Assembly (NCBI GenBank): GCA_039621445.1
Contig: CP154954.1
Location: forward strand, 6,955,425 to 7,019,424
DNA from: Euglena gracilis
Taxonomy: Eukaryota
Length of the DNA: 64,000 bases
Direction: 5' to 3'
Position 1 is the stretch's first letter; each line of letters starts with the position of its first letter. Shown piece after piece: positions 9,691-64,000 of this stretch. The notes below the pieces were generated by a model that was not told the origin of the DNA, searched no databases, and saw nothing but the letters and a program-made list of their open reading frames with translations. The translations under genes and the position numbers were made by a program.

Positions 9691-9797
9691 CTCACAATGT
9701 CTTTGTGCTTCGCCCTCGGTGTCCCTTCCTCCCTTCTCGGTCTGCCTCGAGGGAGTACGAGACACCTCGGGCTCCGCACTTTGCCATTGTGAGGCCA
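9691..9797. repeat. DIRS B internal complementary region (ICR)
   Basis: 9691-9760 is complementary to 9393-9462, and 9761-9797 is complementary to ~14110-14146. Confidence 0.92.
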
Positions 9798-9799
9798 GA

Positions 9800-15229: not shown

Positions 15230-18200
15230 TAACTGAAAATTCAAAAATCCAACCGCCCCCCCCCCTTCCTTTGGGGTCCGGGGGTCCTGAAAATTCAAAA
15301 TAATCCGAACATTAAAAAATCCAATCGCCCCCCCCCCCCTTTACTTCGGGGGCCGGGGGTCCTGAGAATTCAAAGAAATCCGAAAATACAAAAGTCCAAA
15401 CGCCCCCCCCTGTCCTTCGGGGGCCGAGGTCCGAATTACCCACAGTAACTGAAAATTCAAAAATCCAACCGCCTCCCCCGCTTCCTTTGGGGTCCGGGGG
15501 TCCTGAAAATTCAAAATAATCCGAAAATTCAAAAATCCAACCCCCCTTTCGTTCGGGTGCCGGGGTCCGAATTATTCCAACAAACTGAAAATTCAAAAAG
15601 CCAAACCCCCCTTTCGTTCGGGTGCCGGGGTCCGAATTAATCCAACAAACTGAAAATTCAGAAATACAACCGCCTCCCCCCCCCCATTCCTTCGGGGGCC
15701 GGGGGACCTTAAATATTCAAAAAAAATCTGAAAATTAAAAAATTCAACCGCCCCCCCCCCTTTTCCTTCGGGGGCCGGGTTCCGAATTACCCAAAGTTAC
15801 TGAAAATTCAAAAATCCAACCGCCCCCCCCTCCCTTCCTTTGGGGTCCGGGGGTCCTGAAAATTCAAAAAAATCCGAAAACACACCAATCCAACCCCCCC
15901 CCCTCTTCCTTTCGTGGCCGGGGGCCGAATTATTCCGACAAACTGAAAATTAAAAAACACAACCCCCCCCCCTTTCCTTCGGGTGCCGGGGTCCGAATTA
16001 TTCCAACAAACTGAAAATTCAAAAATCCAACCGCCCTCCCCCCCCTCCTTCGGGGGCCGGGGCTCCTGAAAACTCAAAAAATTCCGAAAAATTCAAACCT
16101 CCAACCGCCCCCCCCCCCTTTACTTCGGGGGCCGGGGTTCCTGAAAATTCAAAAAAATCCGACCCCCCCCTTCTCCTTCGGGGGCCGGGGGTCCTGAAAA
16201 TTGAAAAGAAAAATCTGAAAATCCGAAACATTTCCTTCATTTGGGACTGGTGGTTCTGAAATCCTGTAGTCCAATTGAAATAAGAAATTGTCTAGTAGGG
16301 AATCACCGTGAGTGTGCTTAATTCTTTTCCTTCTCTTTTCTCCAAACCCCGTGAGATTTGTGTGCTTAGGGGGACACTATTTTCCTTTTCCTATTTCGCC
16401 GATCAAAGGCGTCAATAACATAACCCCCCCCCAAAAAAACAAGACCCCCCCATAAAATGGACCCCCCAAAAAAATAAGACCCCCCTGGCCGGTTCCGAGC
16501 AAAAGTCCATGGACTCCCCCCATAAATAAGACCCCCCCTGCCGGCGCGAAGCCCCGCATTTTTGAAAAAAGGGCCATTTTTGGGCGGTAAATCTGTCATT
16601 TTGGGACAGTTTCCATACAATTCAGCATTTTTCCCTCTATTTGTCTGGCGCGAAGCGCCGAAATTTTCGAATAATGGTTTTTTGGGGGGTATTTTTCGAC
16701 ATTTTGGTGGGTCGAAAAAATTTCCAGCAAAAATCCGTAAAATGGACCCCCCCCCCATGAATAAGACCCCCCCTCGGGCATTCCAGCAACCGACCCATGA
16801 AATGGACCCGTGGTCTTATTTTTGGGGGGGGTTACGTTGTTGACGAATTCAAAGAACATCAATGTTTGATCTCAAAGGAACGTGTCGATAACCCTTAAAT
16901 TCAATAAAAAAAATGCAACGCCCCACCCCCTTCTTCTTCGGGGCCGGGGGTCCTGAGAATTCAAAAAAACCAACGCCCCCCCCCCTCTTCGGGGCCGGGG
17001 GTCATGAAAATTCAAAAAAGTCCAACGGCCCCCCTTTCTTCGGGGCCGGGGGTCCTGAAAATTTAAGAACTCCAACGCCCCCCCCCCTTCCTTCGGTGCC
17101 GGGGGTCCTGAAAATTCAAAAAAATACAACGCCCCCCCCTTCTTCGGGGCAGGGGATCCTGAGATTCAAACATACTGAAAACTGAAAAAAAGCTGAAAAT
17201 TTCAAAAATCCAACCCCAACTTACAATTTAAAATTCCAACCCCCCCCTTCATTTTGGGGGCTGGGAGTCTGAAAATAAAAAATTCCAACCCCAACCTTTC
17301 TCCCTCCGGGTGACGGGGAGTCCGATAATCCTCAAATCAATCCTCAAAGGTGATTGTGCTTTGGAAAACAAAACAATGATCCGATAGGAGGCACGGTGTC
17401 GATGAATTCAAAGGGAATCAACACTTGATCTTAAAAGTAGTGTTTTGAGACGCCTGAAAGCTATAAAATTCCACGTTCCCTTCTATGGGGCCGGGGTCGT
17501 ATGATTCAAAAAAACCAACCCCCCCTTCGGGGCTGGAGGTCCTGAAAAATCAAAAAATACAACGCCCCCCCTCTTCGGGACCGGGGGTCCTAAAAATTCA
17601 AAAAATACAATGCCCCCCCCCTTTGCTCGGGGCCGGGGATCCTGAAAATTCCAAAAAATCCAACGCCACCCCCCCTTCTCGGGGACGGAGGTCCTGAAAA
17701 TTCAAAAAATCCAACGCCCCCCCCCCTTCTTCGTGGCCGGGGGTCCTGAAAATTAAAAAAAAAAAACAACGACCCCCCCTTCTTCGGGGCCGGGGGTCCT
17801 GAGAATTCAAAAAAACCAAGCCCCCCCCCCTTCTTCAGGGCTGGGGGTCCTGAAAGTTCAAAATATCCAGTGCACCCCCTTTCTTCGGGGCCGGGGGTCC
17901 TGAAAATTCAAAACCTCCAACCCCCCCCCTTCCTTCGGGGCCGGGGGTCCCTCAGATTCAAAAAAAATCAACGCCCCCCCCTTCTTCGGGTCCTGAAAAT
18001 TCAAAATATCCAATGCCCCCCCCCCCCTTTCTTTGGGGCCGGGGGTCCTGAAAATTCAAAGATTCCACTCCCCCCCCCTTTCTTCGGGGCCGGGGGTCCT
18101 GAAAATTCAAAAATTCCAACGCCCCCCCCCCCTCTTCGGGGCCGGGGGGTCCTGAAAATTCAAAAAAATACAACGCCCCCCCTTCTTCTTAGGGGCTAGG

Positions 18201-18605
18201 AGTCCTGAAAATTCAAAAACTCAACCCCCCTTTCTTCGGGGCCGGGGGTCCTGAAAATTAAAAAAAAACAACGCCCCCCCCCCTTCTTCGGGGCCGGGGG
18301 TCCTTAAAATTGAAAATATACAATGCCCCCGCCCTTTCTTCGGGGCCGGGGGTCCTGAAAATTCAAAAAATACATACCCCCCCCCTTCCTTCGGGGACAG
18401 GGGTCGTGAAAATTCAAAAAAAAAACAACGCCCCCCCACTTTCTTCGGGGCCGGGGGTCCTGAAAGTTCAAAAAATACATACCCCCCCCTTCCTTCGGGG
18501 CTAGGGGTCGTGAAAATTCAAAAAAAACAACGCCCCCCCCTTTCTTCGGGGCCGGGGGTCCTGAAAGTTCAAAAACTCCAATGCCCCCCTCCTTTCCTTC
18601 GGGTA
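15230..18605. repeat. Degenerate ~50-60 bp minisatellite (GAAAATTCAAAAAATCCAACG(C)nTTCTTCGGGGCCGGGGGTCCT) in two blocks, ~15230-16210 and ~16890-18605
   Basis: Dozens of directly visible tandem copies. Confidence 0.9.
16410..16844. mobile_element. MITE-like element with ~26-bp terminal inverted repeats
   Basis: CGTCAATAACATAACCCCCCCCAAAA ... TTTTGGGGGGGGTTACGTTGTTGACG. Similar ends occur at ~26845-27225 and ~35335-35735. No clear TSD. Confidence 0.6.
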
Positions 18606-27796: not shown

Positions 27797-42930
<15,134 letters not shown>

Positions 42931-46068: not shown

Positions 46069-49000
46069 ATGCAGGAATTCTGCGCCGTGTGCGAGCGTCA
46101 GCTCCAAGCCAACTCACCCATCCATTCACTTACGCAGCTCTCACTGTATTCATGGGCTGATTCAACGGGTTTTCATCCCCCTCTTGTGATTTCCAGGGAG
46201 TAGCAGTCATCACGTGCGTTCAAATCTCGTTTCTGGGCTGCCTCCTGAGACATCCGAGGCCGAAGTTTCCGAACCCCCTTCCCCCGCCTCGTACCTGCTG
46301 CAGTTTGGCTTCGCATTTCGTTTTTTCTTTTACAACACAACACTGCCGTTTCCCACGGTGCGAGGTGCGATTCCACGGGTTTTCTCAAAAACACGCATGA
46401 AAAGGATGTCCTCCGCGTCTCCGGAGCGACGGGATGGCGCCGACGGTGACCTGTTCGGCGCCGGGCTGCGGCAACCGGGTCCACCGCCGCCGCTGCGCCT
46501 TCCGCCTCAGAACCGGTCTGTGACTCTGCCCCCGTCCAATACCAACCGTGGCCAACAACTGGATCCGCTGTATACAACTGGAAAGCTGTTTTTTGGGGGG
46601 GGGGTCCGGGTACCTCCCCCTGTTTGGTCCGGACCCCCCCTTGGCAGGTGAGGGGGGGTCTCCACCTCTGATCCAGAAGGGTGACCCTCCTGCTAACCCG
46701 CATACCCTCCTTATATCGAACCCTGCCCCTGCCTCAAAATTTTCCTTCCGGCGCCGAAGGTTTTGGGTATTTTGGGCAAAGTTTTGCCCCAAAATTGCCC
46801 AACCTGGCCTTTTTGGGCCGGCGCTTTGTGCCAGGCTGAAAATTGGTCCCCCGCACCGCACCACTCTCCCGGGGCCGGGGGGGGGTGCCCCCTGCCGGAC
46901 TGGAGGGGGGGTCTGCCCCCCCCACCTGCCCATATCTCGAACCCTGGGCGGGGGGCTTTGCTCAAGCCGGAGAGTCCATCTGGGGGAGGACGATGACGGG
47001 ATGGTTCAGCCTTTTCCCATCACCCCAATTTGTTTGGGCACTCTCTGAGCCCAGTCCGAGTTCTGGGACCCTCCAAAACAAAATTAATTGCTCATCGAGC
47101 GATTGAGGTTTCCCCAATATAAGTGTTTATGACTTCCTAATCGGGTTCTGCTGTTCATGATATGTGGCATGCTTCCAGTGCTTCCAGTTTGTTGGAAGGT
47201 TGTCTGGATTCTGCCATTTTCGGCGAACTTCTTCGCAATAGATATGCAATATCTACATTTGCATAATTTGATATCCAGCTTGTGATGCTCATATGTCCCC
47301 GAGGCTTCGTGTGAGGACATTTTCAGGATATAGAGGATGTTCTGTTAACAAAAATGTTTCAGCTACTTCAGGGCGGCTGGACAGTAACGGATTATATGCT
47401 TTTGTGGGGTGAAAAAATGGGCCAAAAATGGGGGGAAATGGGCCGGATTTAGGCTGGCCAGGGCAATTTTGGGATAAAAAAATCGATTTTTTTTGCATGA
47501 TTGGCAGTTTTGGTGTGTTATTTTGAAGTTTACCCGGTTTGACCCCGGGTCAGGCCCAGCTCCAGCCCAGGACCCCTCTTGGGGGGGGGGGGGCGTCAGC
47601 CAGGAGTCTTTTTCCAGCCAGCCCAAATTTTCCAGCCTCTGAGCTGGACCCCCCGGGGGGGGGTTCGTTAAAAATGGACTTCGCTGGTCACTGCACTGTA
47701 CGTCCTGTGGATGATGCTTGGATACATCTGCACAGGAAATGTCTCCTGTGGGGGATGCCTCTCCTGCCTTCCTGCACCGTCTGTTGCCAACACCCAATGG
47801 GTTGCCATGTGTCACCCATCTGTCATTTTTTCCTGTGCCGCACAAATCCATTTTCATTCATTTTCATTTTCCTTTTGGTCCCAAGGAGTTTATGATTGAG
47901 AGGTGCGGGAACTGATTCCTGGACAACCGTATTCCCAACCCTATTTCTATATTAAAAAAAATGCACCAAAAATGAAACCTCCATCAGCTTCCCTGCAGAA
48001 ATAAAACCCCCACTAAACCACTGAACTACTGGATCACTGGGGGGGGGGGCAGTAGTGTATCGCTGCTGTACCTTAACCACCTTGGAGGGCTAAGGTTAGG
48101 GTTTGGCCAAATTTAGGAGGTTAGCCTAAAACCCAGCCCAACAACTGGGCCATTTTAGTACTGATTTAAAGTCAAATTGCCTAAATCCTCATCCCCAAAC
48201 CCTGCTCTTGACCTTTAACCCTAACCCCATTCCTAACCAAAATACCCCCAAACCCAAACAAGCCTTCCATACCACACGTTTGCCATCGCCGGAAGTCAGG
48301 ACAGAAAGACAGGAGAGTTTGGCCTCGGGCCCCTCTTCTTTAGGGCATGTGGGCCGGAGCCCCCTGTGTCATTTCCTGAAATCCCGGGTGATGGGTGGTA
48401 TAGGGCTACCGAACGCACATCTCATTTATTACGTGCAACGTTGGTATTGCCGTGCCATCCACTCATGCGTGTCACAGAGCACAGTGGGTGGCACTGCACC
48501 CGGTGCCCGAGCCCTGTCCTTCCGGCCCTCATCCGCCACCCCCAGGGCTTCGGAAGTACCACTCCACTTACCCAGCTGGGGCGAGAGCGGCAGGCATTAT
48601 TTTTTTAAGGCGAAATTTCTCAATTTTTTTTAAGACGTTTTTAAAGGTTTTTTAAGGTTTTTTAAGGTTTTTTGAGGATTTTAAAAAAAAATTTAAGGTT
48701 TTTTAAGGCATTTTTTTCCTCAGGCAAGATGTCAGACCCCAAAGATGGCCCGATGGCTTCAGACTCCTCTGTGGCTTCGGAACGCCCAAGGAAGAAGCCT
48801 GGGGCGAAGCACGGGGATCAGGGCGGTCCATGAGGGACAGTCATTGTCAACAGGCAAGCAAATATCTTGAATAGGGTCAGAAATTTGAAGTAATTGCAAT
48901 GAAAAAAAATGGATGGTTTCGAGTTTTGAGTTTCGAGGTGACCCACTCTGTATCTCATGCAACAAGGTGTTGAGCAATGTGTATGGTGGCACACTGCATG

Positions 49001-52000
49001 GGCACGCATTTGGTATTGCTCACATGAAAAAGTTTGATTATTTTCTCGGTGTTCATGAGGCTATCTGGTGTGGGTGCACAGGTTGCCGCATTGCGGGTCT
49101 GCAAATCCGCGATTGCGGTTCGGATATCCACTGTGTCATTTTGCCACTGTTGTTGCAAACTCTCAATCCTACTTGCGATATTCGAGATTTTGGGTGTGAA
49201 AGCTTGCAAATTCAGCAGGAATTTCTCCACAATGGCAAGATTTCTGCTCCAAACGAGAAATTCCTTCTAACTGCTGCACATAAGTGCGGGGATCAAAACT
49301 TTCGCGTGCTTGGGCAAGAAAGTGGGAAAAATTCGCGGAATCACCGCTCAATTGGGGAACGCGCTGTTTCGCTTCTTGAAATGCTGTGGCAAGTGTGGGA
49401 AACTGCTCCAGCGTAGTAAATTGTCCCAAATTGGGATTTTTTTGTTGTTCATGCAACTTTTGCTACAATTGCACTTTTGAGCAATTTGGGTTGACTCCTC
49501 TAAGAATGTCTCAAGCAATTCAAATCAAGAAAGATGTTGTTGCAAGTTTTGCTTTTTCTGGCCGTGTGTCACAGCCTTTGGTGAAGCGAGGCCAACCGAA
49601 CTATGCCAGAAACCTTGGCAAACAATCCGGTTTTCATATTGTTTGTTCACAATCGCATCTGCATTGACTGGCTTTATGCAGGGTTTCAGACATGCTATTA
49701 TTTGTTTGGTGCAAGAAAATTTTTTCTCAGGGAGAATTTTTAAGGTTTTTTAAGGTCATCATAGGGAAGAAAAACTTCCCCAGGGTGATTTTTTTAAGGT
49801 TTTTTAAGGTTTTTTTTATGGGTTTTTAAGGCATTTTGGCAAAAAAAAATTTAAGGTTTTTTAACGTTTTTTAAGGTTTTTTAAGGTTTTTTAAGGCGCC
49901 TTAAAAAATAATAATGCCTGGAGAGCGGTCCCCGACGCGGGTTTTTTCCCCCACTAACCCCCCCCCTAATAAGTGCGCAGTGCCCTAATTGTGCGCAGTG
50001 CCCTAATAAGTGCGCACCCACCATGGGTCCGAAACTACCTCCCTAAAAAGTGCGCACCCCCCGCCAACGGAGAAATCACTGTCATTTTACAGTCAATGGG
50101 AGAAAGCACAGGGGAGAAGGTTCGGTTTTGGGGTGGGCAGCGCCATGACCCATCCCTGCACCCCTGACGTCTTTTCAGTGAGAACAAAGCGGCAATTCGT
50201 TGCTTTAACTAAACGACTAGTCTTCTTCAGCTTCTTTGTCGAAGAATCCCCCTCGGTGTCCGACCGGCACATATGGTCTTTGACTGCTGGTTTGGGCCTG
50301 GCTGTGTGTGTGGGGATGTCGCTGTGGTTGTTGATTCCGTTCCCGGTTTGCCGAAGGCCCTGCTTGCAGCATCCCGCTCCCCTTCGAGCGCTGTGTGCAC
50401 GGCTGCGGCAACGCCACAACCAACCGCCACTGAGACCCCTGCTTCTGGTTGCTGCTCGTCGTTGTTACCATGGGTTATTCATTTCTGTGCCACATATTTG
50501 CAGATGAAGCATAGGCTCTCCAATGGCTTGATGATTTGGCAGTCTCCAAGCATCCACTCCCATTTCTTTTTGAGGCAACGTCATCCAGCATCGGTTCAAA
50601 TACAAGTTGCTGTTGTGGTTTTTATTTTTAATTGTTCTCTGTTTTTTTAAAAAAAGTACGAATGCTCTTTGGGGGCTGGGGTCAAACTGACAGAAGACCT
50701 CAAAGTCTTTTTGGTTTCTGGTCTGAATAACAGAAAAATGAAATTTTAATCGAAGGGAAATATACTCGAAGGAATGGCACAACAACGATTCAGGAAACAA
50801 TATCAACAACCAAGTAATAATGATTAATGGTAAAAGGTTGAAGGTTGGGTAAATATTGCTTATGGTAATGTACGTATGTATGTATGTATGTATGTATGTA
50901 TGTATGTATGTATGTATGTATGTATGTATGTATGTATGTATGTATGTATGTATGTATGTATGTATGTATGTATGTATGTATGTATGTATGTATGTATGTA
51001 TGTGTGTGTGTATGTATGTATGTATGTATGTATGTATGTATGTATGTATGTATGTATGTATGTATGTATGTATGTATGTATGTATGTATCTGTATGTGTA
51101 TGTATGTATGTATGTATGTATGTATGTATGTATGTATGTATGTATGTATGTATGTATGTATGTATGTATGTATGTATGTATGTATGTATGTATGTATGTA
51201 TGTATGTATGTATGTATGTATGTATGTATGTATGTATGTATGTATGTATGTATGTATGTATGTATGTATGTATGTACGTATGTATGTATGTATATCAGTC
51301 ATCGACTAAAGAAAACGCACTCCCATGAACCATGAGGCGCGCAATGGGAGCCTCTTCCACCCTTTGCTCGCCTACGACCCCTGGTTCGGTCGCTTTGCGC
51401 TGTGCTCCGAGGGTCATGCGAAGCGGGGCACTGGCGCGATTTGGCGTAACAGTGGTGGCATATGTTTTACCATCAGAAAGACAGACACATTGCACATACT
51501 GCATGTGCACTCGCACAGACACACAAACACCTCGTATTCTCATTTTTTTAGTTCCGTTTTGCACGCGAGAGCTGGTCTGAGAACCACCCACCAAGGAGTC
51601 CGGATCGTTTGGTGTGCTCTGTGTCACATTCCGTTCACGGCCGGTGCCCTCTGCCAGACGCAAGAAAAGGAGCGGTGTGTCTTCTGTGGTGCTGCCGCCG
51701 CTGCTCCCAACCCGGCCTCTCTGACACCAGAACCCCTTGGAGAAGCAGTCATTCAGTGACTCCTGGGAGGAAGGATTTTCATGTGGTTGATATTCAGGGG
51801 GACGTCAGATTCCAAATTCCAGCCCAACCCCTTATCCCGAAGTCGTAGTTCGAGCCATGTGGGTCCCGAGACAGGGACCCCAGTGCACTAGAGGCCCCCC
51901 CGGTCAATAGCACCCTGCAACGGAATCATTGCTTTTCTTTGAAGGATGCCCGTTTGAGCCAAGGCAGCACCAAACCAGGTCGAAGATGGCAGGAAACTCG

Positions 52001-55000
52001 GACGAAATGTGCCAAGGATTTGGGGTAGAGTGAAAATATAGGTTTGCATTATTCAACCAATGAGAGGTCTGTAAAAAAAAACCCATAAATTTGGCAAGTG
52101 CTTGCGTTCTCACTGAATCTCGACGTCCCCCCCCCACCAAAAAGAAACCGGACCAAACAACCCCTGCAGCCCTGGGACAGTGTAATTTGTAAAAAAAAAT
52201 TCAAAGTCTCTTTCCATAAACTCCGGCATATTGGTTCCAGTTTGTTAATGTTGTATCGTTCCAGTCGAGGGACCGGCTCCTGCCCAGCTGCTCCAGTGTG
52301 CGGACCGCCTGAAGTGCGGCAAGCGGTTCTGTGCGGGTTGCCTGCACGGGTACTTCGGCGGAAAGGCCGGTATGGCCTCGCTGCTATAAGATTTCCTTAA
52401 GCCGGAGGGGACCCCACCCTCCAGGGGGGGGGTCCAGCCAGCACCTGTTTTCCAGCTGGCCTGCGGGACCCCTTCCTCCCCGGGCTGTCCTTAAGAAAAC
52501 CCCATGGTCCGGGCTGAGCATCAAACCGGGTTGTCGCAAAAGTGTACACAATCCCTCCTGGGGGCCTTCACTGGATCCCCTCTAGCCCAACCCCCCCCCC
52601 CCCTCACAAACCAAGGAAAGCCTTCTGGGCTGGTAACCCACCCTTGGCTTGGGGCATCACAATCACGGCCGCGAAGTGTGGGTCGAGTATTTGTGCTGCC
52701 ATCCATTCCAGATACCAAGTGATGAAATGTCGTTTAAATCACAGTTCTTTTTGACCTGCATCTCCCCCTGCTATTCAGAGCATGGGGGGGACACACACAT
52801 TTTGGGCACCGATGAATGTGTAGTTTGGGGGCATAGGTGATAGGTGGGTGGGCCGCCAGCAATTTTTGCAGGCTCCCCGCATTTTTCTCCAAGCCAACAG
52901 AATGCGTTATCCCATCAAACATGCAAAAGAGCAAAAAAAAATATCCCCCAAATAATATTCACTGGACAAACTCCATCCCCAAAGGTGGGATTATTTGGGG
53001 ACATTGTTGGGCTAAACTTTTTTTCTTTTTCGGCTGAACGTGCGATTATGCAACCAAGCATGGACTTTTCGATGCTCTGTATTCAACAGACCTCCGTTTT
53101 TTTGAGAAGCCCCGTGTCTTCTGGGTTCCACCGAGACCACGTTCAATTGCGGCATGGTGGACGCTGGGAATCATTTTCCCATATTGTCGGCCCCCCCCCC
53201 CCCGAAAGACGTCCAATTTTTTCGTCATTTTCCTTTTTTTTTTAAAGCGAAGTGTTTTGTTGAACGCTGTGGTGTCGACCCGGCCATCACTCCCAGCCCC
53301 GGCAGTTCCCCATCGTCCCCCCCCCCCAGTCGTTGGGTCCCACTGTCCCCCTTGTCTGTCCACACACATTCTTGGATCATTGGCGTGCCTTGGACTTGAT
53401 GGGGGTCGTCGGTTCCGCTGGAGCGCACAGGAAGGGCGTCAGTGTTGTGTGCCTCTGTTCTGAACATTGGGCGCGTGACAGTGTGTGGGACAGACTGGAG
53501 AGGGGAGATGTTTTTCACACGGACAGCCAATAAATGCTGCATTTTTGTGTTGAGTTTGTGCGTCACAGCAAGGCTTAAAGTCCTCCTCGCTTTGTTGCAT
53601 TGCTGTATTTCTTAAAATACATTTTAATTATTTTAATTATATTTCTGTTTGTGTCAGCGAATTTTTTCTTTTTAGTTGACATAATAAAGTCTAATCTTTT
53701 GTGGAATGGCGAGCATATTTTCCAAATTTGATTATTTTGAATGTATTTGGTGCTTTGCGACTGAAGATGCTGAGAGTATTTGTATACATTATGGGGCAAC
53801 GTGAAGGGAAGAGGGGGAGAGGGAGAGATTCGCCGACCCCTTCCTTGTGTACGGTTTATTATGCTCACGGCTTCTCCCGTCTCCTCAGCTGCGAGACGAG
53901 CAGAGGCTCTCGGTGATGAGTGAGCAGGGTTGGCGTCACCCCACCCAAGCACCAGAAAAGGTGTTATTGGGGAGCTGAGGTTCCGGCACACAGGGCACGG
54001 GTTTTTAAGTTTGTTCATTGGGCTGGTAAACTTTGCTTTGATTTTGCTTCATTGTCACAATATTTTGGGGAAATCGATTTTTTGAACAAAAAATGGTCCC
54101 AAAAGAAAACAAAAAATGCCTGCTTGCGTTAATGCATTTTCCCCCAAGATATGACAACAAGCCACTCATCATAGTGGAAAGCAAGCCCGACTTCTTGTTG
54201 TGTGTGGAGGAAACGGGATATCCAGAGAGCAAAATGAAGGCCTTGGAATGCCCTATCCAACCATGGTTTACTTTTCCACCAACTCTTTGTGTAGCCCGAG
54301 TCAGGGCCATTTTTCGACCAATTTTGGCTCATTTCTACAGTGATTTCGTGATGTGGCTTTGTTCTGGCAGGACATGAAAGCTGCTCATCATCCCTACACC
54401 CCCCCCCCCCAACCTGGAATGCTGCCCCTGCCACCGGTTCTGCCCCGTCTGCATCCCTGCAGAGTGCAAACCACCTCCACAGCAGCAGACACATGTTCTG
54501 TCAACGGAGTGAAGAGTTGACCCCCTCTGCTGCTGTTCAGCACCAATCCACCCTCACCTTGTGTCCGAAGTGGCAGGCTTCCAGGTTTTGCTCCCCCCAA
54601 GCGGGGCTGTTGGTTTGAGGTGGGGGTGACACTTTCGGTCCGTAGGTCGGCACACCAGCACTGGGGCATCGAGGGCCCATAACGGCACTTTGACGGGTGT
54701 TGGCCCGGGCCCAGGACCCATAACAGAATGCACCCGTCCATTCCTCCCCAGGGGAGAAAATGGAGGTGGGTGGTGTAAAAACATATCAAACCGTTTCCCC
54801 TCCCCGGGAATTGTCATCTGGGAACTCCATGTTGCCTCCCAAGAAACTGTCAAGGTATTGGAAGCTTGTCCAGGTACCCCCCCCCCCCAACGTCTAATGA
54901 ACCCCCTTGCCCAATGAACAGGGGTGTCCGGTCCGGAGCATCTAGAGTGCAACCCTTCCGGACGTCCCCCGTCCGGACCATCTAGGTCATTTTAGTGTTC

Positions 55001-58000
55001 AGCAGGCTTGGGGGGGGAGGTACCTTGCACTGATGGACCTGTCAGAGCTGGCGTCCATGTGATCCACCCGTAATTGCCCTGCCCAGAAATCAAGGCCCTG
55101 ACATCAAATCAAACCAGGGCCCTGCCTGGGAAACTGGCATCCCTGAGATCCTGGCAGGCTCCCGCCCAGAAGCCGGTTCCTGCCAGTTTGTGAGAAAGTA
55201 TCACCGTCTGCGGTGCTGGTCGACCTGTCAGTACCAGGGATTGGCAGTTTGTCGTTGTGGAAATGATGCATTTATCCAAGGGTAACTTATTTTGTTTTGT
55301 TTTGTTTTGTTTTGTTTTATATATATATATATATTTGTTTTTTTTTGTTTTTTTTTTACTTCATTTTATTTTATTTTATGTGTTATCATTATGATTTATA
55401 ATAAATAATATTATTAATAGTATTAGTAAGTTTGGCACCAGCGCTGGGCGGTGCCCCCGGGAGGTGCCCTACCAGGTGGGCGACCACGTGGAGGTGGCCG
55501 GCCCGGCTGGCCCCGTGGTGGGCAGGCACCTATAGCTAAAATGGCCTAAAATGGCCTAAAATGGCCTAAAATGGCCTAAAATGGCCTAAAATGACTTTTT
55601 GACCCCCTATAGGTGGGGGTCCCTAAAATGGCCTAAAATGGCCTAAAATGGCCTAAAATGGCCTAAAATGACCTAAAATGGGAAAAATTCTGTTGCACAA
55701 TATTTTTTTTGTGAACAACTGAAGCCATCCAGGCAATGACTTTCGGTGTCTTTTGTTAATGTGGACGGCGAACAGTGGATTTGGTGGAGGAGTACAGCCC
55801 CACAAGGCCCATGTTTTTATCCCAACTAATAATAGCATCAGTCCCCAAATCCACAGTCCCCAACCTTTGGTAGCTGAATTTTGAAGGTTTGGACAGAAGT
55901 ATTTTTTCTTACTCCCATCTTTTTTTTGGTGCAGAACGATGTCTGTTTCACAAATAATGAAACAGTGCAAGTTTTGAAGCATGGGGAAAATACAAAAAAA
56001 ACGTAAAAGATGTTGGAAAAATCTCAATTGAAATTGAAAATACAAGTACTGTTATAAATTTATAAATATAACAATAATTTTTCTAAGGAAACTCATTTTT
56101 TTTATCAGTGGACATTTTATTATCATAGGAGTTTTATATGTTTAATATGGGTATTTAATGTGGGTATTTTATTATTATCAATTTTGTTTATACATATTTT
56201 CTATATTTATATAAATTTTATTACTATCAATTTTTAATGTAATATTTTATAATACAAACAACACATGTTTTTATACAATTCAGTAATAAAATATATATAA
56301 AATATAGAAGTTGACATACAATGACATATAGAAATTGAGATTAATAAATATATATTAAGTAAAAATTGTATTGATATTATATGTAATTGTTAATAATAAC
56401 TATTATGATTATTTCAAATCATATTATTAATAAAATTGCGTATGATAAAATATGAATATGATAAAATTGAATGTGATAAAATAAAATATGATAGAATATA
56501 AAATATGCTATTGGTAAATAGCGCAAATAAACCTTTTAATATTTGTTCAACTTTTTTTTCTGAAAAATTTTCATTGCCGTAAATTCTTGCTGTTCAGAAT
56601 TCCTCTATGGGAATGAATTAAGATTTGTTGAGTTTCCCATGGTTTTGATCCAGTGTTCATGAATTTTGCATGCTTTTTCGGATGTACATTGTTATAACCG
56701 AATAAGAGAAGGTCTGCACATGTTATGATACAGTTTTCGGAACAAAAATATCGAAAAAATATGATTTTCAGAACCCCCACCTATACCTTAAAATGGCCTA
56801 AAATGGCCTAAAATGGCCTAAAATGGCCTTAAATGGCCTAAAATGGCCTAAAATGGCCTAAAATGGGGAAATTTTTGGGCTTGACTATAGGTGCCTGGTG
56901 GTGGGGGACGTTGTGGCGCTGCAGACCAAGCAGGGGCCCAAGAAGGCGGTGTACACGGTGCCTCCCTGCCCCCTCTCCCTGGGTGTCAGTTTGTGGACAC
57001 CTGCTGTCCAGGCTGTTAGGCTCCCTGCCCCACCATACCCGCAAACCTGTCAGTTCCGTCATGACTCATTCTCGGCTTCATTATTCCCCCCTGCCTTGAT
57101 AAACCCTTCGTAGTTGACACTTGTCTCAGATCCAGGTGGGATTATTATATTTGTTCAAACAAAAAAATACCGCCCAAATGCACATTTTTTACATAATTTT
57201 GGGATCTTGTTCATTTTGAAGCTTATTTTTTCTGTCAATTTTTTGTACCAGTCAGTTTTGCCAAAATAACCTGTTTTTTTGTGGGGGAGACAAACCGTTT
57301 ATTTTCCACCTTCCTTGCTCTCCGTCTCAATGGTGGGGGGCATGCTATATCATTCATTCTGCCTCCACAGCCAGCGCTTACAGGCGCACAAGTGCACAGG
57401 TGCCCAAAGATGGGGACAATGGCTATCCACCCCAGTTTGGACCTCTTGCCTGGGTAGGATTGGGACCTCTTGCCTCGTGCCTGGGTAGGATTTTGGATTG
57501 ACTTCTAGGAAGGCAAAATGGGGGGGATGCCTTCCACAAGACTGGTCGCAGGTTTGCATGCCGCGCTGTGGCACACTGCTGGAGGCACTGCTGTGTTGGG
57601 CAGGGCCTTGCTAGTGCACACACAGCATGGGATTCTGGGGTGGGGTTGAATGCCCCCCCCCCACAAATATCGAGGGGTTGAAGACGTTTGACACTGAGTG
57701 TGTGTTTGTTCCCACACTTCCAATGCAAACACGCAATGCAAGCGCAGCTGGGATTTAAGGGTTTTTTTTTAAAGTGCGGATGCTCAGTGTCACCCCCTGG
57801 GCATGCTATTTGGGGGGGGGCTGTGGCTGCTTGGTAGGTGACGAGTTGTCGAGGCAGGAGCACAGACATGGTATTCTGAAGCTTTGGAAGTTGTTGTTGT
57901 GAAGAAGGTGGACTCATGCTGTTCACTGTGCTGTTTCTCCCGTTTTGGCTCATACCCCCCCCCTCTCTCTCTCTCGCCTGGCCACAGGTGTGGTACCCGC

Positions 58001-59509
58001 AGTGGGGCCTCACCGGCTACCACGAGGCCCGCCAGATCGTGGGCATTTCCCGCCCACGGCACTGCCTGCTGAATGGCAACCGACGGGGGCGGGGAGTGAC
58101 GGAGTGGTTCCTTTTTAAGGTTGATTGCAAGGGGTACCCCAGGGGTGGAAAACCAGTCTGGAGGCAGGTTTTCCTCCTTTTGGGTCATAAATGCCCCCCC
58201 CCCTTCGGTCTTTCTGCGTGGGGGGGGTTGGGTGACAACCCCCACAGGCTAAGCCCTGAAAACCTCTGATAAGACAACCAGAAACACTGCAGGTCACCTC
58301 CAGACACTCACTTGCATCGTTGGTTACTTATTATCTTACTATCCCTTTCCATAACACGCCTGGAAACAAGCATGTTGCGAGCACCCTGCCAATTCCAAAA
58401 CGCTCTTGGGAGGCGATTTTTAAATTAAAGGTTTTGAAGTTGAAGGCTTAAAAAGGTTAAGGCTTTTAAAAGTAAGGCGTTTTAAAGGTTCTTTTTTAAA
58501 AAAATGTATTTTTTGAGGTCTTTTAAAAAATGTCCAAAGACGATCCGCCCATCGCGCGAGGTTGAAATAAAAAGGCTGGAAAAACATCCCAAAACTATGT
58601 TTTTTGGCCTCCCAAACCCGCAAAAACTGTTTCCAAGCTGAAAATGTGCGTTTTTCGACCCCCCCCCCCCGGCCCCGCTTTTTTGGCCCCAAACCCATGC
58701 ACTTTGGGTCATTTCGGGGTCAAAAAAAAGTCGAAAAAATCGATAGTTTTTTTTCTAGTTTGTGTACCAGTATGTTCCAAGGATTCCAGACATGAGTTTT
58801 TTGTTTTCGGTTGTTTCTTTTTGCCGAGATTTTCATTTTTGTTCAGTCAAAGAACATTTCAGCCAGGATGCGATATTGCGGGGTATTTTGAGACATTTTG
58901 CTCAAAAATTGAGGTTTTATTTTTTAAAGGGTTTTAAAGTCCTGCTTGGGAGGAACGAGGTTGGGGGCTCCCCAAACCGAAGGAAGGGAATTGCCGTGCC
59001 ACCAGGACCCTGCGTACCCCCAGGTCCCGGGCTACGCCCCGCGCGGCGCTTTGCTGGCGCCCCAGCCACCTGTGCACACAAAAGGCTGCCTTCGAGGGTG
59101 CATATGCCGTCCGCATCCCACGGACAGTATGGACCAGCATTAGCTTTGTGTTGGCCTGGGTTGTGCTTCATGGGTAGATGGGGTTGGCCGCTTCCTGGGT
59201 AGTGCCCAAACGTCTGGGTTGTGCTTCATCACAGGTTTGCCCCGAGACCCCCCCCCCCCGGCATTGGTCAATTTTAGCCTGGTCTATAGAATCCCAAGAA
59301 TCCCAGAGAATGCATTTTTGCATTTTTTTTTCGCTGGACGTCTGCAGGAGGCTTGTTTTTTTTTTGGTGGGAAGCTGTTCTCTTCAGCAGGTGGGGGGGA
59401 ACAGTGCGCCGCCAGCAGAGCGGCCGCTGCTGGCCAACCAGCATGCCCCCCCGCGTCGCATCGCTGTCCTGCCCCGGCCCAGACCCGACGTGAGCCACGC
59501 CAGCAGCAG
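46069..59509 (+). CDS. Multi-exon chromatin-reader protein: PHD finger + ADD (ATRX/DNMT3-type) zinc finger + Tudor/SH3-like domain; 3' end probably continues further
   Basis: Proposed exons: 46069-~46095, ~46434-46515, 48478-48539, 50368-~50424, ~51352-51411, 51622-51688, 52265-52369, 53889-53921, 54436-54463, 55442-55519, 56903-56957, 57988-58051, 59004-~59071, ~59391-59509. Peptide: CAVC..CSAPGC..H..C..WHCTRC (PHD); CVHGC..FHPLL..LCSEC..CVFCVEG..LLQC..CGKRFCAGCL..WFCPVC (ADD pattern); YQVGDHVEV..GDVVAL..VYTVWYPQWG (Tudor-like). Splice phases are mutually consistent. Confidence 0.78.
48591..49920. mobile_element. hAT-like non-autonomous element (1330 bp), 8-bp TSD GAGAGCGG
   Basis: TIR CAGGCATTATT / AATAATGCCTG, subterminal TTTTTAAGG repeats; TSD at 48583-48590 and 49921-49928. 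Confidence 0.9.
50875..51293. repeat. (TATG)n microsatellite
   Basis: Direct reading. Confidence 0.97.
55523..56897. mobile_element. hAT-like element inserted in coding sequence, forming intron 55520-56902 (introner)
   Basis: Perfect 13-bp TIR CAGGCACCTATAG / CTATAGGTGCCTG; TSD GTGGTGGG at 55515-55522 and 56898-56905. It splits the peptide ..AGPVV|GDVVALQ.. of a Tudor-like domain. Confidence 0.92.
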
Positions 59510-62500
59510 GTGTGAGTCCTGCCCCCTCCTTCCATAGTTTGGGGTTCGCTGGTAGGTGGGTTAGCTTTGGGGCAATGCTTGGGTCTGCGGGGCCGCGTTT
59601 TTATTGGAGGCAGCCGACCACATTTTGCCCCAGCTCTCATTCTGAGCCATCCTCAAAACTGACAGACATGCAATCGCAATTGTTTAAATTTTGTTGGACC
59701 CAAGGGCGGTGGGGGACAAACAGACAATATCGTTCTTGACGTGGCATGACAACGTTGGGAATCCCTTCTGTGCAACAGGAAATGAATTTTAGCACGCCTG
59801 GGGAATTTACAACAGCGGACCCTCATCCTTTGTCGGGTGGCCACCATAATAAAAGCCTACGCTCGCCATTAAGAGAAGTGGGGGGGAGTGGGAGCGTCGC
59901 TCAGCAGCGCAATAAAAGGTCAAATATTCCTTCCCCTGGTTTCTGCCGAAAATTTTGGGCGTTTTTGTCAAGTTTTTATCTGAAAAGAGCTCAAATAGTG
60001 TTTTTGTCCAATTACGAGTGATAAAAATGGACTAGGGGGAGCATCCATCCATCCTGCCACCAGCGTTTACATCAAACCCTGCCCTGACGCCCCCCCCCCC
60101 CCCGAGCAGTAGTGTCTGAATTCTTCCCAGTGCGTGGTCAGCCCCCATCATCAGAAAGAAGGTTATTATCCCCAGGCCCAGTATATCGCCCATCCACCCA
60201 AAATCTGTTGTTTTTTTCATTTTTAGTTTTCGACCCTGTTCGAGCCCACTCCAGCCTTTGGCCGGCACCTTGGCCCAAAGAAGGGGGGGGGGGCTTTTCT
60301 TGTCCCTCAAGGACCGACCTGCCCAGGGCAAGTCGCTTAACAACCACCTGGCCCCCGGAAGTGGTTCTTTCGATGTTTTGAATATCTCTCTGCGATTACC
60401 TTGCCGCAGGGTTCGCATTTGGAGGATGTCAGGGTTGGGATGGGAATGGTGCCCCACTGTCCGGTCGCCTTGGGCTGTGCAACCCTAAGTATAACAGAGG
60501 GCGTTTCGGGTGGGCGTTCACCCCCTAAACCCTCCACCCGGCCCTCCGGCAAGCCCTGTGCCGCCCATCTCTTGCAGCTCTCGCGAAAGTTCCCTGCCGA
60601 TGTCTCAGGAGGTGTCGCTCTCACGTTCCCCTCTGCTGCATCTCGATTCTTTCCCTGCGAATTTTTGCATTGGGCGCCTTCAGCATCCGCTTATGCCTCC
60701 TTTGCACCTGTGTAAGACTGTAAGAAGGGGCGTGGGGGGGGGGCTTCTTCAAACAGGGGGAGGGGGCCAATTATATCCAGCCGGCAATTCATGGTGGTTT
60801 TCAGGGCACAAATGATAGGCCAGGGATTGTGGCTGCCCGTCAAAGGGGAATCAAGCAAGGCTGAAAACCTTTAATTTCTGTCCTGAAAACAGCACATTTT
60901 GTTTTTGGCCCAAAAGATTGCAAAAATGTGTTGAAACCTTTTTTAGTTTTTCGCATTTCTTGTGCATTTTTTGTGATTTCTCCATATCTGCTCGTTTTTG
61001 TAGTTTTTTTTTGCATTTTGAAAATGCCATCCTCCTCATGTGAATTTGAGCCATTTTTTGCATGTTTCGGTATTTTGCAATTCGGTGGATTTTTTTGCAG
61101 TTTTTTCTCTCAGATTTTGCTCATTTTTGCGTATTTTCCTGAAATTTTTTTTTTTTGCAAAATTTCCCCCACATATTTCTTTTGCACAATTTTCCGAGCC
61201 CCGGTTAGTGGATTTCCCCTCCCTGTTTTCATTATTAAGCGTGGTTAGCCAAAAATCAACCCCAGAAGTGATTTCAACCACAACGCTGTTTTCACAGGTG
61301 CCAAAATGCTGTTTGTTTTCACATCCTTGTTTGTGCCAAGCATGGGGGGGGGGCGTAAAATGTGGAAGTTGCAGAATTTTGCATTTTTTTCCATGCCGGG
61401 GGAGGGGGGAAAATTTGGATGGGAAAAATTGTTGTGGGAAAAATTATTAAAATTGTTGTGGACGAAATTTTGTCCGGGATTTTTCCGGTCATTTTAAGGA
61501 TCCGTCCAGTCCAGAATTTTATTTCAAGAAAATTCCAATTTCCGCCAGTGAAAATTTTCTTCGGCATTTTGCACCATGTTCCAGATCACTTGTTTAGAAT
61601 GTAGCAATGCTTCAAAATAAAAGAATGTGTTTTTTTCTTGTTCTGTAATTTAAAGGTTAGTATTTCATTAATTTTTTGAAGTTTGTGTTTTTGGAAACCT
61701 CGGGATTTCCTGTAAATTTTCTGTCCAGAGTTTTTCCCAGCCGCTATTAAGCGGGCGTCCAGAATTTTTCCCAGCATTTCAAGGATTCGTCCAATATTTT
61801 TCCTGACAGAATTTTCCCCATCTGCAATTGTCCCCGTCCCCTTAGATCACCCCTCCCTGGAAAGCCAGAAGCTTGAAAATTTGTATATTTTTTGGCAATT
61901 TCTTCTTTGGCATGAGTTTCAATATGACATCTTTTGCCAACCATCGGAGGTTTTCCCATTTTTCAAACCGGTTGCCAGTGCCTCTTTGCTCTCATCAGGA
62001 CGAAGCCAAACCTCCCGTCCCGTCCAAAAGAAGCCACCGAGCTTCATCCAGGGCTGCATCTGGAGCCCAAAATCACTGACAATAAGGTCCGGTGCGTTGT
62101 CCACCCAACCCCCCTCCACTCCCTCTCACTTCTGGGGCACCAGCTTCCTAACTCCATTGATTTTCAAGCTACTATTCCCAGCCGTCTCCGATGGCGCTCC
62201 ACTTTCGATGGGGAGGTGTTGCCGCCAGGCCGATTTGTTGGTTTTTTTGTTGTTTTGGGCAAGCCATTTTAAGGTGTTTTGAACTCTTTCAGAATCTCTG
62301 GCGTGTTTATATTTTTCCATTTGGATTTTGCATTATTTTTTTGCTGTTTATTTTTTTAAAAAAAAATTGCATGTACTTGCATAATTTTTGGAGCAAAATG
62401 TGAATGAGTGTTCGACATGTCCAAACGAATGTTGCATGATGAAATTTTTTCCTGAGGAGATTCCTGCAGAAATGTTTACTGCCCAGCTTGGTCTGTTTAA

Positions 62501-64000
62501 ATGTTTTTTTTTCCTTTCACCCAAGCGCATTCCAGGCCAGGCGGCGCGGTCCGTGGCCTCGGAAACACAGCCCTGGCCGCGGAACCGTCGTCTTCCAATC
62601 CTTCCCGCGCCGCAAAGAAGCAAAAGAAGGCAAAGGTACGCGCCGTGTTTGATGTGCCGAGTTGGAATCGGGTGGGGAAACCCAAGGGTGTCCCCCGCTT
62701 CTCAACCATGTCAAGCTGCGTGAGAAGACAGGCGGCCCATGTGGCATTTAAGAATTCCGCACACCTGCGCACGAACCTGTGACGTGTCCGTCTGCTTCAT
62801 TTTGCCCTGTTTGAAACTCCTTCTGTCGGTGACCCTCCGGCCTGTTGCCCAAACATGGCTGAAGTGTCTCGGGGGTTGAACCTGGAGAATTGCCAGAGGG
62901 GGAGCTGCAGGCCCCCCAAAAACCTGCTGACTGTGGCACCACAAAGCATTGCAACCCACATATCTGTTGGTCCTTTCACCCTCGCCCGTCACTCGGCAAG
63001 CAAAATTGAGGGCTTGTCCATCAGTTTCTAAACCCAACGCCCTCCAGTGCCTTTGCGCCTGCCTCAGGTCCCAGCGTTTTGCATTGACTTTCAACATCGG
63101 GGCTTGGACCCCATCCAACACGTTTTGAGATGTGTGATCTTTTCCTCAGAGACCCAATCGTGCGCATATGCGCGCGATCCGGCCATCAAAGACCCCTCGG
63201 TGATGTGCTTGGAGACAACGGCTGCCTTCCAGCGGCGTGTTTGTTGGGAGGGGTTTCAAACAGGGGCCGAGAAGCCGAAGAGGTGGAAGTACCCGATGCG
63301 TCCACAGGCGCATGACACCTGCGTGAAGCATCGCCTCTCTGCCTGGGTTTTCAACACGGGCCATGGCGTCTCTCTTCCAATCGCGGCAAGTGCGCATGCA
63401 GTGTGTACCTCTGCGGGCGCGAGCTCGCGCGGTTCGGTGCTGAGTGTATTCCCTCTGGCTCGAGGTCTCCCGCACGGGTAGCCGAGGGCTTCCATTCCGG
63501 TCAATCTGCTGTGTTAAGTGCTGTCTTTTAGCGACCAGCTCGTGGCCAGGCACCGATGACCGACCAGGGCCGACCATGATTTTCAGGACCCCCCCCCCCC
63601 ATAGAACCCCCTTTGTGGGGGTTCTGACCAGGGACAACCGGGGCTGACCTGGGACAACCAGGGCCGACCAGGGCCGCCTTTTCATTTTTTGTTTTGTCAG
63701 CTGATTGTGCCCATGGGAAATGCTGGATAAGATCTTCCCTGGCCTGCAGTTTTTTGGCCGTTTGGTGACGCTTCAAATGGCGGGGTCGGCTCACACGCAG
63801 GTGCCCTCAATCGTGCCATGCGATGTGCACATGTTGTTCCAGCACCGCAAGGTCACTGTCTGCGGAGATTCAGAGGGGTTTCTTACTCACAAGTTTTGAG
63901 TGCCATATTTGCCATCTAACACTTTTTTCCTTTATTGCCCTGAGAATGAATGCCAGGCCAGAGGCAGGTATTACTCTTTTAGGTAGACCACCCCCTCCGA

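Follow-up and report, generated by a model that had tools for sequence, protein, structure and literature searches.

A 1.4-kb element located at 55523-56897 of the window, the 64,000-nt stretch of Euglena gracilis DNA analysed here, is a recent insertion within a protein-coding exon, and it is very probable (roughly 0.85) that this exonic transposon is removed by nonconventional splicing together with exactly one copy of its 8-bp duplication, the reading frame being restored without a scar. The insertion structure, an empty site in DNA and RNA free of the element and of 8 nt more, including RNA from the element-bearing haplotype, were observed. In the mechanism that we propose, a non-autonomous cut-and-paste DNA transposon would recently have entered a 60-nt coding exon of a gene on the + strand and duplicated the target GTGGTGGG. 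Upon transcription, the 13-nt ends would pair, bringing the two 8-mers next to each other, and a nonconventional (non-GT-AG) route would cut out the element plus 8 nt, giving back the frame that preceded the insertion. The spacing of 3+5 = 8 nt would be provided automatically, in either orientation, by CAG...CTG termini adjoining an 8-bp duplication. An earlier note on this DNA had advanced this interpretation, which is partly supported as a whole; of what it had predicted for the locus, the junction and the mobility were borne out, and its 3+5 register is the only one of nine equivalent registers that fits.

Table 1. Features of the inserted element, its surroundings and the related elements (positions in the window)
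Feature	Position	Strand	Remarks
Non-autonomous TIR element, long form	55523..56897	+	1375 bp, 30% GC
Target-site duplication, copy 1	55515..55522		GTGGTGGG
Target-site duplication, copy 2	56898..56905		GTGGTGGG
Left terminal inverted repeat	55523..55535	+	CAGGCACCTATAG; pairs with right end in MFE and centroid fold
Right terminal inverted repeat	56885..56897	+	CTATAGGTGCCTG; exact reverse complement of CAGGCACCTATAG
Subterminal arrays of a 10-nt unit	55536..55681	+	unit CTAAAATGGC; surround palindrome CCCCCTATAGGTGGGGG (55603-55619)
AT-rich internal segment	55700..56770		absent from short form; without long ORF
Right subterminal 10-nt array	56789..56866	+	
Nonconventional intron placed by 3-nt/5-nt rule	55520..56902	+	GGG-CAG...CTG-GTGGT, 1383 nt
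Upstream micro-exon	55459..55519	+	final 5 nt GTGGT = exonic part of duplication copy 1; joints 54468->55459 and 55514->56898
Downstream micro-exon	56903..56956	+	first base purine G; ends at GT-AG intron; joints 55514->56898 and 56956->57987
Short sister copy	39497..39702	+	190-bp element at 39505-39694, CTTGCCAT on each side
Different TIR element	48583..49928		48591-49920, 1330 bp; ends CAGGCATTATT; perfect 8-bp duplication GAGAGCGG; GC-rich flanks
Different TIR element	33653..33952		33661-33944, 284 bp; ends CAGGGATTTTTTT; perfect 8-bp duplication GTTCCTGC

The layout of the sequence confirmed the structural observation of the earlier note, a TIR element between 8-bp repeats with a sister copy elsewhere (Table 1). 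The TIRs of the long element are 13 nt long and perfect, with CAG...CTG tips, and the element plus one 8-mer amounts to 1383 nt. It belongs, as the long form, to a highly repeated MITE family whose ends are CAGGCACCTATAG. The sister element (ends CAAGCACCTATAG and CCATAGGTGCTTG) displays 98.5% identity with it across 135 nt and its two 8-mers, at 39497-39504 and 39695-39702, are identical at 8/8 positions. Between these two family copies (n = 2) the duplication is constant in length (8) and differs in sequence, GTGGTGGG versus CTTGCCAT. The family end motif, with at most two mismatches, has five occurrences in the window (0.82 expected), and none of 100 shuffles reached five. DNA contigs from other copies link ~55594-55681 to ~56866-56878 of the long element. 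Moreover, in X1, the DNA run used for the analysis of the empty site and of copy depth, contig depth is ~9.8e3 to 3.1e5 on the element versus ~40-110 on its flanks, a ratio of 2e2 to 7e3 that does not equal a copy number. Loose ends of reads and contigs from other copies fall exactly at 55523 and 56897-56899 in both DNA and RNA, with low agreement, and reads within the element are swamped by other family copies. The end motif and the central palindrome used as queries gave no match in two metagenome scans. As the window yielded no transposase, mobility is deduced from structure, copy depth and presence/absence; the sister copy with its unrelated 8-bp duplication, the very high depth and the empty-site copy in DNA agree with the proposal that the family is mobile.

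This family is not alone in the window. A scan of its whole length for exact 8-bp direct repeats adjoining a TIR of at least 11/12 nt gave six matches, against a mean of 0.05 (maximum 1) in 20 Markov shuffles, and four of them were kept after curation against 0.05 expected. Two of these four belong to further families, referred to here by their ends CAGGCATTATT and CAGGGATTTTT, which are unrelated to the main one, end in CAGG and likewise show perfect 8-bp duplications (33661-33944 and 48591-49920); the latter element lies just upstream of the host-gene exon ending at 50426. The two matches set aside are artefacts. The one at 17529-17924 (B) is one period of a tandem array at ~15233-18603. At 9409-9744 (A), the 8-mer CCTCGAGG is palindromic and the inverted repeat continues through it into the flanks, so that this match cannot count as evidence for a duplication; it is also related to the neighbouring retroelement's ends. 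A relaxed TIR scan returned 13,579 pairs, mostly of low complexity, and a stricter one was used instead. There, 8/8 flank identity was found in 3 of 78 pairs starting with CA versus none of 664 others, with a complexity filter that removes elements C and D.

The inserted element is putatively hAT-like, as judged from its ends and duplication. Elements of the hAT type have CAG or TAG ends and 8-bp duplications, with a terminal consensus YARNG and a weak target preference nTnnnnAn. In each of the four elements, the 8-mer duplication adjoins CAG or CAA, and the termini CAGGC and CAAGC agree with the consensus at four of five positions. Short TIRs starting with CAG and the lack of coding capacity are likewise shared with hAT MITEs; the differences are the fifth terminal base and the target preference, which do not clearly fit (T at position 2 in three of the four elements, A at position 7 in one), and the cognate transposase, not found in the window. 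The basis of the 'hAT-like' designation in the earlier note is the 8-bp duplication together with the CAG ends. A Pfam search of nine long ORFs of the window revealed neither a hAT domain nor any DNA-element transposase, only RT, integrase-like and Dam-like ones. Alternatively, a superfamily other than hAT that makes 8-bp duplications, be it Merlin, P or one not yet described, could be the source of the element; we consider this rather unlikely though worth keeping in mind, and it would leave the splicing part unchanged. In our literature search, the only DNA transposons reported for Euglena gracilis were Merlin families, whose duplications are 8 bp long (PMC8101967), and this was also the only paper retrieved from the literature joining Euglena, hAT and transposase. 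However, Merlin elements carry a conserved terminal 5'-GG, with duplications of 8-9 bp (PMC8101967). Such ends are absent here, and moving the ends to GG breaks the duplication.

The host gene lies on the + strand and comprises at least 13 micro-exons. Thirteen joined exons give 705 nt with no stop in 234 codons in one frame and a GC3 of 0.78, whereas retention of both 8-mers leaves at least one stop in each frame. RNA junctions and open frame confirm the earlier reading of an interrupted coding region. The 12 introns of the gene include 8 non-GT-AG and 4 GT-AG introns. Read by eye only, its product would carry a Tudor-like barrel preceded by a Cys-rich finger. An (ATGT)n array occupies 50868-51293.

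Two raw-read RNA-seq runs, X21 and X24, assigned by their species label, and a contig set, X15, guessed to be RNA, were mapped to the locus. The profile of X15 fits RNA: depth is 0 in 7 of 30 bins, all intronic or otherwise non-exonic, and all 12 joints are present. The RNA joint 55514->56898 leaves out 1383 nt, is ambiguous over 8 nt and is supported by 11 reads at 11 starts in X21, 3 reads at 2 starts in X24 and a depth of 141.8 in X15. X24 is stranded and points to + strand RNA. The junction predicted in the earlier note, without 8 extra nt, is thus present in both RNA-seq runs and in the transcript-like contig set, and no alternative junction at this locus appears among the best-supported joints listed.

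The same joint, with a single GTGGTGGG, is found in DNA, in one X1 contig of depth 28.3 that is only ~110 nt long. Since the gene's remaining 11 introns have an X1 joint depth of 0, this empty site is neither a retrocopy nor cDNA; it could belong to a close paralogue instead of an allele. The empty-site copy is marked by T at two SNPs, 55478 and 55496, a synonymous change at third codon positions (GTG>GTT). In X1, T accounts for 28.3 of 74.9 at these positions, which is the depth of the empty-site contig; consequently, the copy with the element is marked by G (depth 46.6), the base also present in the window.

These SNPs bear on a simple alternative, in which the junction reads would come from the element-free copy only, the element-bearing copy being a null allele whose transcripts, with the element unspliced, are retained or degraded. 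The element-free copy does exist in DNA and is expressed, T reads being found in all three RNA sets, and in X24, T is seen in four of five SNP reads and the three joint reads may all derive from the empty copy. On the other hand, X21 shows T in 4/14 and 4/13 reads at the two SNPs versus 11 joint reads, and in X15, where T accounts for 51.7 of 141.8 and G for 90.1, the joint depth equals the full 141.8. As joint support exceeds the T counts in X15 and X21, G-type RNA is also joined, and splicing of the haplotype with the element is likewise indicated by the depths at the SNPs. This phase argument draws on totals, of contig depth and of reads, rather than on single reads; the X15 joint is listed as one contig, and that both SNP types carry it is deduced from the equality of depths. 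The RNA G:T ratios (64:36 in X15, 10:4 in X21) are also close to the 46.6:28.3 of DNA, which is unexpected for a null allele, and, at the one register that fits, the element presents every feature of the experimentally defined splicing code (PMC12501133). We therefore give little credence to a null allele.

It is very improbable that the 8-nt repeat is instead the ordinary microhomology of a 'slidable' intron gained by another route, such as break repair, and not a target-site duplication. Short direct repeats do flank 84.4% of Euglena agilis introns, conventional ones included (PMC12501133), and the other seven nonconventional introns of the gene show a junction ambiguity of only 0-2 nt. Against this, a perfect but different 8-mer flanks the same element at 39505-39694, the ends of other copies coincide exactly with the TIR tips, the empty site contains exactly one 8-mer, and the curated scan yielded two unrelated CAGG-ended TIR elements with perfect 8-mers. 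Spliceosomal removal through cryptic sites is hardly credible: the gene does contain four GT-AG introns and a GT start occurs among the equivalent cuts, yet none of these nine cuts (GT..TG, TG..GG, GG..GT, GT..TG, TG..GG, GG..GT, GG..TG, GC..GG and CA..GG) is GT-AG, GC-AG or AT-AC, as the earlier note had asserted for GT-AG, and the joints listed as best supported include no other junction at this locus.

The removal of the duplicated element by nonconventional splicing can be compared with the code of euglenid nonconventional introns, which was defined by knock-ins as a 3-nt spacer ahead of CAG, a 5-nt spacer behind CTG, ~12 nt of complementarity and a purine-first exon (PMC12501133). The real cut cannot be placed within the repeat because 8 repeated nt make nine positions equivalent. 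Among these nine, shift 5 alone displays CAG at +4..+6, CTG at -8..-6 and 12/12 stem pairs, while the other eight have stem runs of at most 4. Both of its junctions are Y|R (T|G and T|G) and its downstream exon is purine-first; fold prediction pairs both TIRs in the MFE as in the centroid structure. We infer that the cuts lie at this register and that a machinery reading the stem would operate there. The 3+5 rule put forward in the earlier note agrees with the removed length, element plus 8, and with this one register of the nine, the exact cut sites not being readable from the junction. The eight non-GT-AG introns of the gene have stems in a common +4/-6 register, with runs of 11, 4, 5, 4, 12, 7, 4 and 8, versus runs of at most 1 in the four GT-AG introns. 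Spliceosome-independent removal giving circular intron RNA has been reported for euglenid nonconventional introns (Guminska et al. 2021, as summarised in a review).

The intron at 55520-56902 resembles the known euglenid nonconventional introns (Milanowski et al. 2014, PMC3935182; PMC12501133) in its non-GT-AG borders, terminal stem and purine-first exon and, at the one register that fits, in CAG at +4..+6, CTG at -8..-6 and the 3-nt and 5-nt spacers. It differs from them in consisting of one complete copy of a recognisable TIR element that is highly repeated, with an intact 8-bp duplication and an empty site in the same DNA sample. A MITE-like ancestry of these introns has been proposed, with no family named, in PMC3935182 and PMC12501133, and in 2014 no transposable element had been identified in euglenid genomes (PMC3935182). 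'Slidable' introns were left out of the 2025 study (PMC12501133); intact duplications would fall in that class. In our literature search, no paper was found that names a mobile family as a nonconventional intron or states the 3+5 = 8 geometry.

Two other systems offer parallels. Like the introners of Micromonas, Aureococcus and dinoflagellates (PMC11282704), the element is an exonic, non-autonomous TIR element whose insertion does no harm, as it is spliced out with one copy of the duplication. In those introners, GT/AG or variants tolerated by the spliceosome come from the duplication or from the TIR, whereas the element described here has no spliceosomal borders and would be removed by means of a stem and a ruler; an insertion creating GT...AG, as in a spliceosomal introner, is not found among the nine cuts. 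The introner elements of Amoebophrya (PMC7789003) are also non-canonical, with an inverted-repeat hairpin of 8-20 nt and direct repeats over the exon/intron boundaries. They belong to another lineage, and their direct repeats are variable, of 3-5 nt, with no fixed 3+5 ruler reported.

The earlier note had gone further, taking the intron consensus itself for the footprint of a transposon. The two additional families with CAGG ends and 8-bp duplications speak for this idea, but the seven other nonconventional introns of the gene carry no duplication signal: their flanks are identical at 2, 5, 2, 1, 2, 2 and 3 positions out of 8, i.e. 17/56, about chance. In its broad form, most euglenid nonconventional introns would descend from one superfamily of CAGG-ended, 8-bp-duplicating DNA transposons, the ruler would exist because 3+5 is the length of the duplication, and any member in any exon, in either orientation, would be erased from RNA without a scar. 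We regard this as a tentative proposal, somewhat short of an even chance.

How euglenid nonconventional introns arose and how they are removed has been debated since the 1990s, a MITE origin having been proposed since 2014. This locus supplies a missing piece, a family that is young and high in copy number and whose ends and duplication are intact. The filled and empty copies of one exon in a single DNA sample constitute a natural experiment on splicing efficiency, and the defined end sequence can be used for finding the transposase and the stem-reading factor. If the broad proposal is true, exonic insertion would be nearly neutral, which would explain why nonconventional introns outnumber GT-AG introns (71.8% of introns are nonconventional in E. 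agilis; PMC12501133). Still-active families would then offer a handle on the splicing machine, possibly derived from the end-binding protein of the elements.

The two RNA-seq read runs aligned to 51300-63999 come from two studies and were chosen by the same species label (X21 and X24); they were aligned together with a set of contigs presumed to be RNA (X15) and a DNA contig set (X1). X15 behaves as RNA, because its zero-depth bins (7 of 30) are all intronic or otherwise non-exonic and every junction is present in it. On this stretch 12 junctions of a single plus-strand gene were recovered, four GT-AG and eight non-GT-AG, that is, nonconventional. One of them, 55514->56898, skips 1383 nt, with 8 letters assignable to either side, and is carried by 11 reads at 11 different starts in X21, 3 reads in X24 and a depth of 141.8 in X15. 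This is the junction, with no extra 8 nt, that the earlier note had predicted in RNA. The 13 exons joined give 705 nt, in which one frame shows 0 stops in 234 codons (GC3 0.78) and the other two show 2 stops each; with both 8-mers retained in the joined message, no frame is free of stops. The junction reads and the open 234-codon frame thus bear out that the insertion interrupts a coding region and that its removal restores the frame. A further upstream exon ends at 50426, and the message runs on past 62637, as seen from a loose end of the aligned reads and contigs. Judged by eye, the product would carry a Cys-rich finger and, after it, a Tudor-like barrel within which the insertion lies. The intron 50427-51356 harbors a 426-bp (ATGT)n microsatellite at 50868-51293.

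Host gene, inserted element and related elements (window-relative coordinates; TSD, target-site duplication)
Feature	Position	Strand	Description
Host gene	51357-62637	+	13 or more micro-exons (33-87 nt each); introns of 234-1519 nt, 8 of them nonconventional and 4 GT-AG
TSD copy 1	55515-55522		GTGGTGGG; sequence inspection
Element, 1375 bp	55523-56897		starts CAGGCACCTATAG (13 nt), exact reverse complement of the final 13 nt
TSD copy 2	56898-56905		GTGGTGGG again; sequence inspection
Sister copy, 190 bp	39505-39694		ends CAAGCACCTATAG / CCATAGGTGCTTG; own perfect flanking 8-mer CTTGCCAT
TIR element	33661-33944 (with flanks 33653-33952)		ends CAGGGATTTTTTTAAG..., CAGGG... start; perfect 8-bp duplication GTTCCTGC
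TIR element, 1330 bp	48591-49920 (with flanks 48583-49928)		ends CAGGCATTATTTTTTTAAGG..., also written CAGGCATTATT...; perfect 8-bp duplication GAGAGCGG
Near miss, 909 bp	27969-28877		ends CAGGGATTCCC...; 7-nt direct repeat AAATTAG
Near miss, short TIR element	41893-42122		ends CAGGGTAG..., CAGGG... start; flank identity 6/8

Direct sequence checks found the layout of the element and its flanking 8-mers as first described, and the short sister copy with its own 8-bp duplication is likewise present. The sister is 98.5% identical to the long copy over 135 nt, and in both a 10-nt unit CTAAAATGGC is arrayed around the palindrome CCCCCTATAGGTGGGGG. From its sequence, the long copy looks like a nearly entire short element at the left, joined to about 1.07 kb of AT-rich DNA and the right half of the element. 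The end motif is enriched in the window, with 5 matches where 0.82 are expected, a count reached in 0 of 100 shuffles.

Owing to the 8-nt repeat, nine cut positions (shifts) are equivalent and none of them is GT-AG, as the earlier note had stated. Shift 5, which reads exon ...GTGGT / GGG-CAG ... CTG-GTGGT / GGG... exon, is alone in placing CAG at +4 to +6 and CTG at -8 to -6 with T/G junctions and a purine-first downstream exon; the stem pairs in register over 12/12 positions at this shift and in runs of at most 4 at the others. At this shift alone would the intron fit the 3+5 ruler exactly; the nine cuts being equivalent, the reads themselves do not single out shift 5. According to knock-in experiments of a 2025 study, nonconventional splicing in Euglena requires CAG/CTG, 3-nt and 5-nt spacers, complementarity over about 12 nt and an exon that starts with a purine (PMC12501133); if cut at shift 5, the intron has all of these. 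All eight non-GT-AG introns of the host gene hold a stem in the +4/-6 register at an allowed shift (runs of 11, 4, 5, 4, 12, 7, 4 and 8), against runs of at most 1 in the four GT-AG introns. In the predicted fold of the whole intron, the two TIRs are paired in both the MFE and centroid structures.

The joined, element-free form also occurs in the DNA set X1, as one contig at depth 28.3. A cDNA or a retrocopy as its source is excluded, since the other 11 junctions of the gene have depth 0 in X1; the contig is a genomic copy without the element and with a single GTGGTGGG. This copy is marked by 55478 G>T and 55496 G>T, both third-position GTG>GTT changes, hence synonymous. In X1 the T variants stand at 28.3/74.9, the depth of the empty-site contig, and G at 46.6; because of this match, and because the window itself has G, T marks the empty copy and G the element-bearing one. 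The contig spans only about 110 nt, over which an allele and a very close paralogue look the same; an allele is favoured by second-haplotype variants of depth 21-28 elsewhere in the region (53984-54031 and 62909-62988).

These markers bear on which copy is spliced. In X15, T reaches 51.7/141.8 and the junction the full 141.8; in X21, T is found in 4/14 and 4/13 reads, against 11 junction reads. X24, with T in 4/5 reads and just 3 junction reads, is by itself insufficient to show splicing of the element copy. The G:T ratio in RNA (64:36 in X15, 10:4 in X21) is near that of DNA (62:38). From these depths and counts, rather than from single reads, we infer that both copies are expressed and that the element is missing from RNA of the copy that bears it. 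Another variant, 54461 A>G, appears in RNA (3/11 reads, 4/6 reads and depth 51.7/141.8 in the three sets) and in 0/43.7 of DNA contig depth. DNA depth at this position amounts to a single haplotype, so the contig of the second one is probably missing from the aligned DNA; RNA editing may be the other source.

Depth of X1 contigs, which is not copy number, is about 9.8e3 inside the element and up to 3.1e5 at its ends, compared with about 40-110 on the unique flanks. Contigs and reads of other copies stop exactly at 55523 and 56897/56899 with discordant continuations, both in DNA (13, 14 and 11 contigs) and in the two RNA-seq runs. DNA contigs of X1 joining ~55594-55681 to ~56866-56878 show that short forms without the internal kilobase are common. 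Other host-gene introns (53844-55539, 58508-58931, 61052-61899 and 63172-63595) also hold repeated elements, as DNA contig depth there is 50-1000x single-copy; one such element begins at 54231-54232 (loose ends in RNA and DNA).

The window was scanned for exact 8-bp direct repeats abutting a TIR of at least 11/12 nt, with 20 shuffles as control. Six matches were obtained against a shuffle mean of 0.05 and four were kept after curation: the inserted element, its sister and the two further TIR elements of the table. With other repeat lengths, the same scan gave 0 matches at 9 bp and 2 at 7 bp. The 1330-bp element has GC-rich flanks (0.69 and 0.59), and the exon ending at 50426 follows it at a distance of about 500 bp; from this arrangement the host gene may have a second transposon-intron here. 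The 175-aa ORF inside the element has no Pfam match. As for the near misses, an internal array of the 909-bp one (28433-28509) resembles, at 80-85%, the 10-nt arrays found in the inserted element's family, and the shorter one shares about 60 nt of internal sequence with the element at 33661-33944 (81% identity). Kept elements and near misses all start with CAGG(G/C) or CAAG. Three families within 64 kb show that elements of the CAGG type are common in the E. gracilis genome.

One dropped match, 17529-17924, is a single period of a tandem array; that array (15233-18603, unit about 50 nt, CCCC...TTC GGGGC...GGTCCTGAAAAATCAAAAAA-like) resembles a TIR/TSD element to simple scans. The other, 9409-9744, has a palindromic 8-mer which belongs to a longer inverted repeat associated with a retroelement nearby. 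Very long minus-strand ORFs at 5271-14060 (1276, 835, 717 and 551 aa), with two reverse-transcriptase matches in Pfam and weak tyrosine-recombinase (Phage_integrase) and Dam-methylase ones, look like one or two DIRS-like retroelements, whose inverted ends may be the palindromic block together with related repeats (4582-5180, 14022-14146). The segment 25001-27000 (63% GC) has extreme GC and AT skew and, on both strands, open frames of 484 and 358 aa; these traits point to a repeat that is simple or of low complexity.

CAG ends together with an 8-bp duplication are the hAT pattern. The hAT-like label of the earlier note retains these two traits, but the hAT motifs for ends and target sites are matched in part, and Pfam recovered no DNA-element transposase among 9 long ORFs of the window. 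E. gracilis Merlin families with 8-bp duplications are on record (PMC8101967); they fit poorly, with conserved GG ends where here the duplication abuts CAG. The superfamily label is thus kept as a hypothesis. The general proposal that the intron consensus is a transposon footprint found no support in the host gene's seven remaining nonconventional introns, where the 8 nt before and after the stem match at 17/56 positions, about chance. Long decay of duplications would give this level, and extension of a transposon origin to all nonconventional introns is likewise a hypothesis.

Such an origin had indeed been suggested before: MITE-like insertion was put forward as intron source by Milanowski et al. 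2014, no euglenid transposable element being then identified (PMC3935182), and the 2025 study repeats the suggestion (PMC12501133). In a 2024 review CAG/CTG are marked as TIRs and ‘TSD-like’ junction repeats are noted, with neither length nor family named; ‘8 bp’, ‘8-bp’, ‘8 nt’ and ‘hAT’ do not occur anywhere in it (PMC11282704). An E. gracilis intron survey (PMC11170887) and a diplonemid study (PMC12621601) only restate the hypothesis. The 2025 study, which set the 3+5 code experimentally, left ‘slidable’ introns (69.1% of nonconventional ones) out of motif analysis (PMC12501133), and intact duplications fall within this class. Outside euglenids the closest analogues are spliceosomal introners and the hairpin introners of Amoebophrya, the latter with direct repeats of 3-5 nt (PMC7789003). 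The literature searched, with few subscription journals, yielded no euglenid transposon family identified as an acting nonconventional intron. As far as we found, the link of 3+5 = 8 is unstated in print; Fig. 1B or the supplements of PMC12501133 may hold a relevant distribution.

The TIR element, its 8-mer repeats and the RNA junction are real observations. The reading that a MITE-type element inserted recently into an exon, and that RNA processing removes it along with exactly one copy of the duplication and in the geometry of the nonconventional code, is well supported. In this sum, 3+5 = 8, a measured splicing rule and a trait of the transposon are tied by simple arithmetic.
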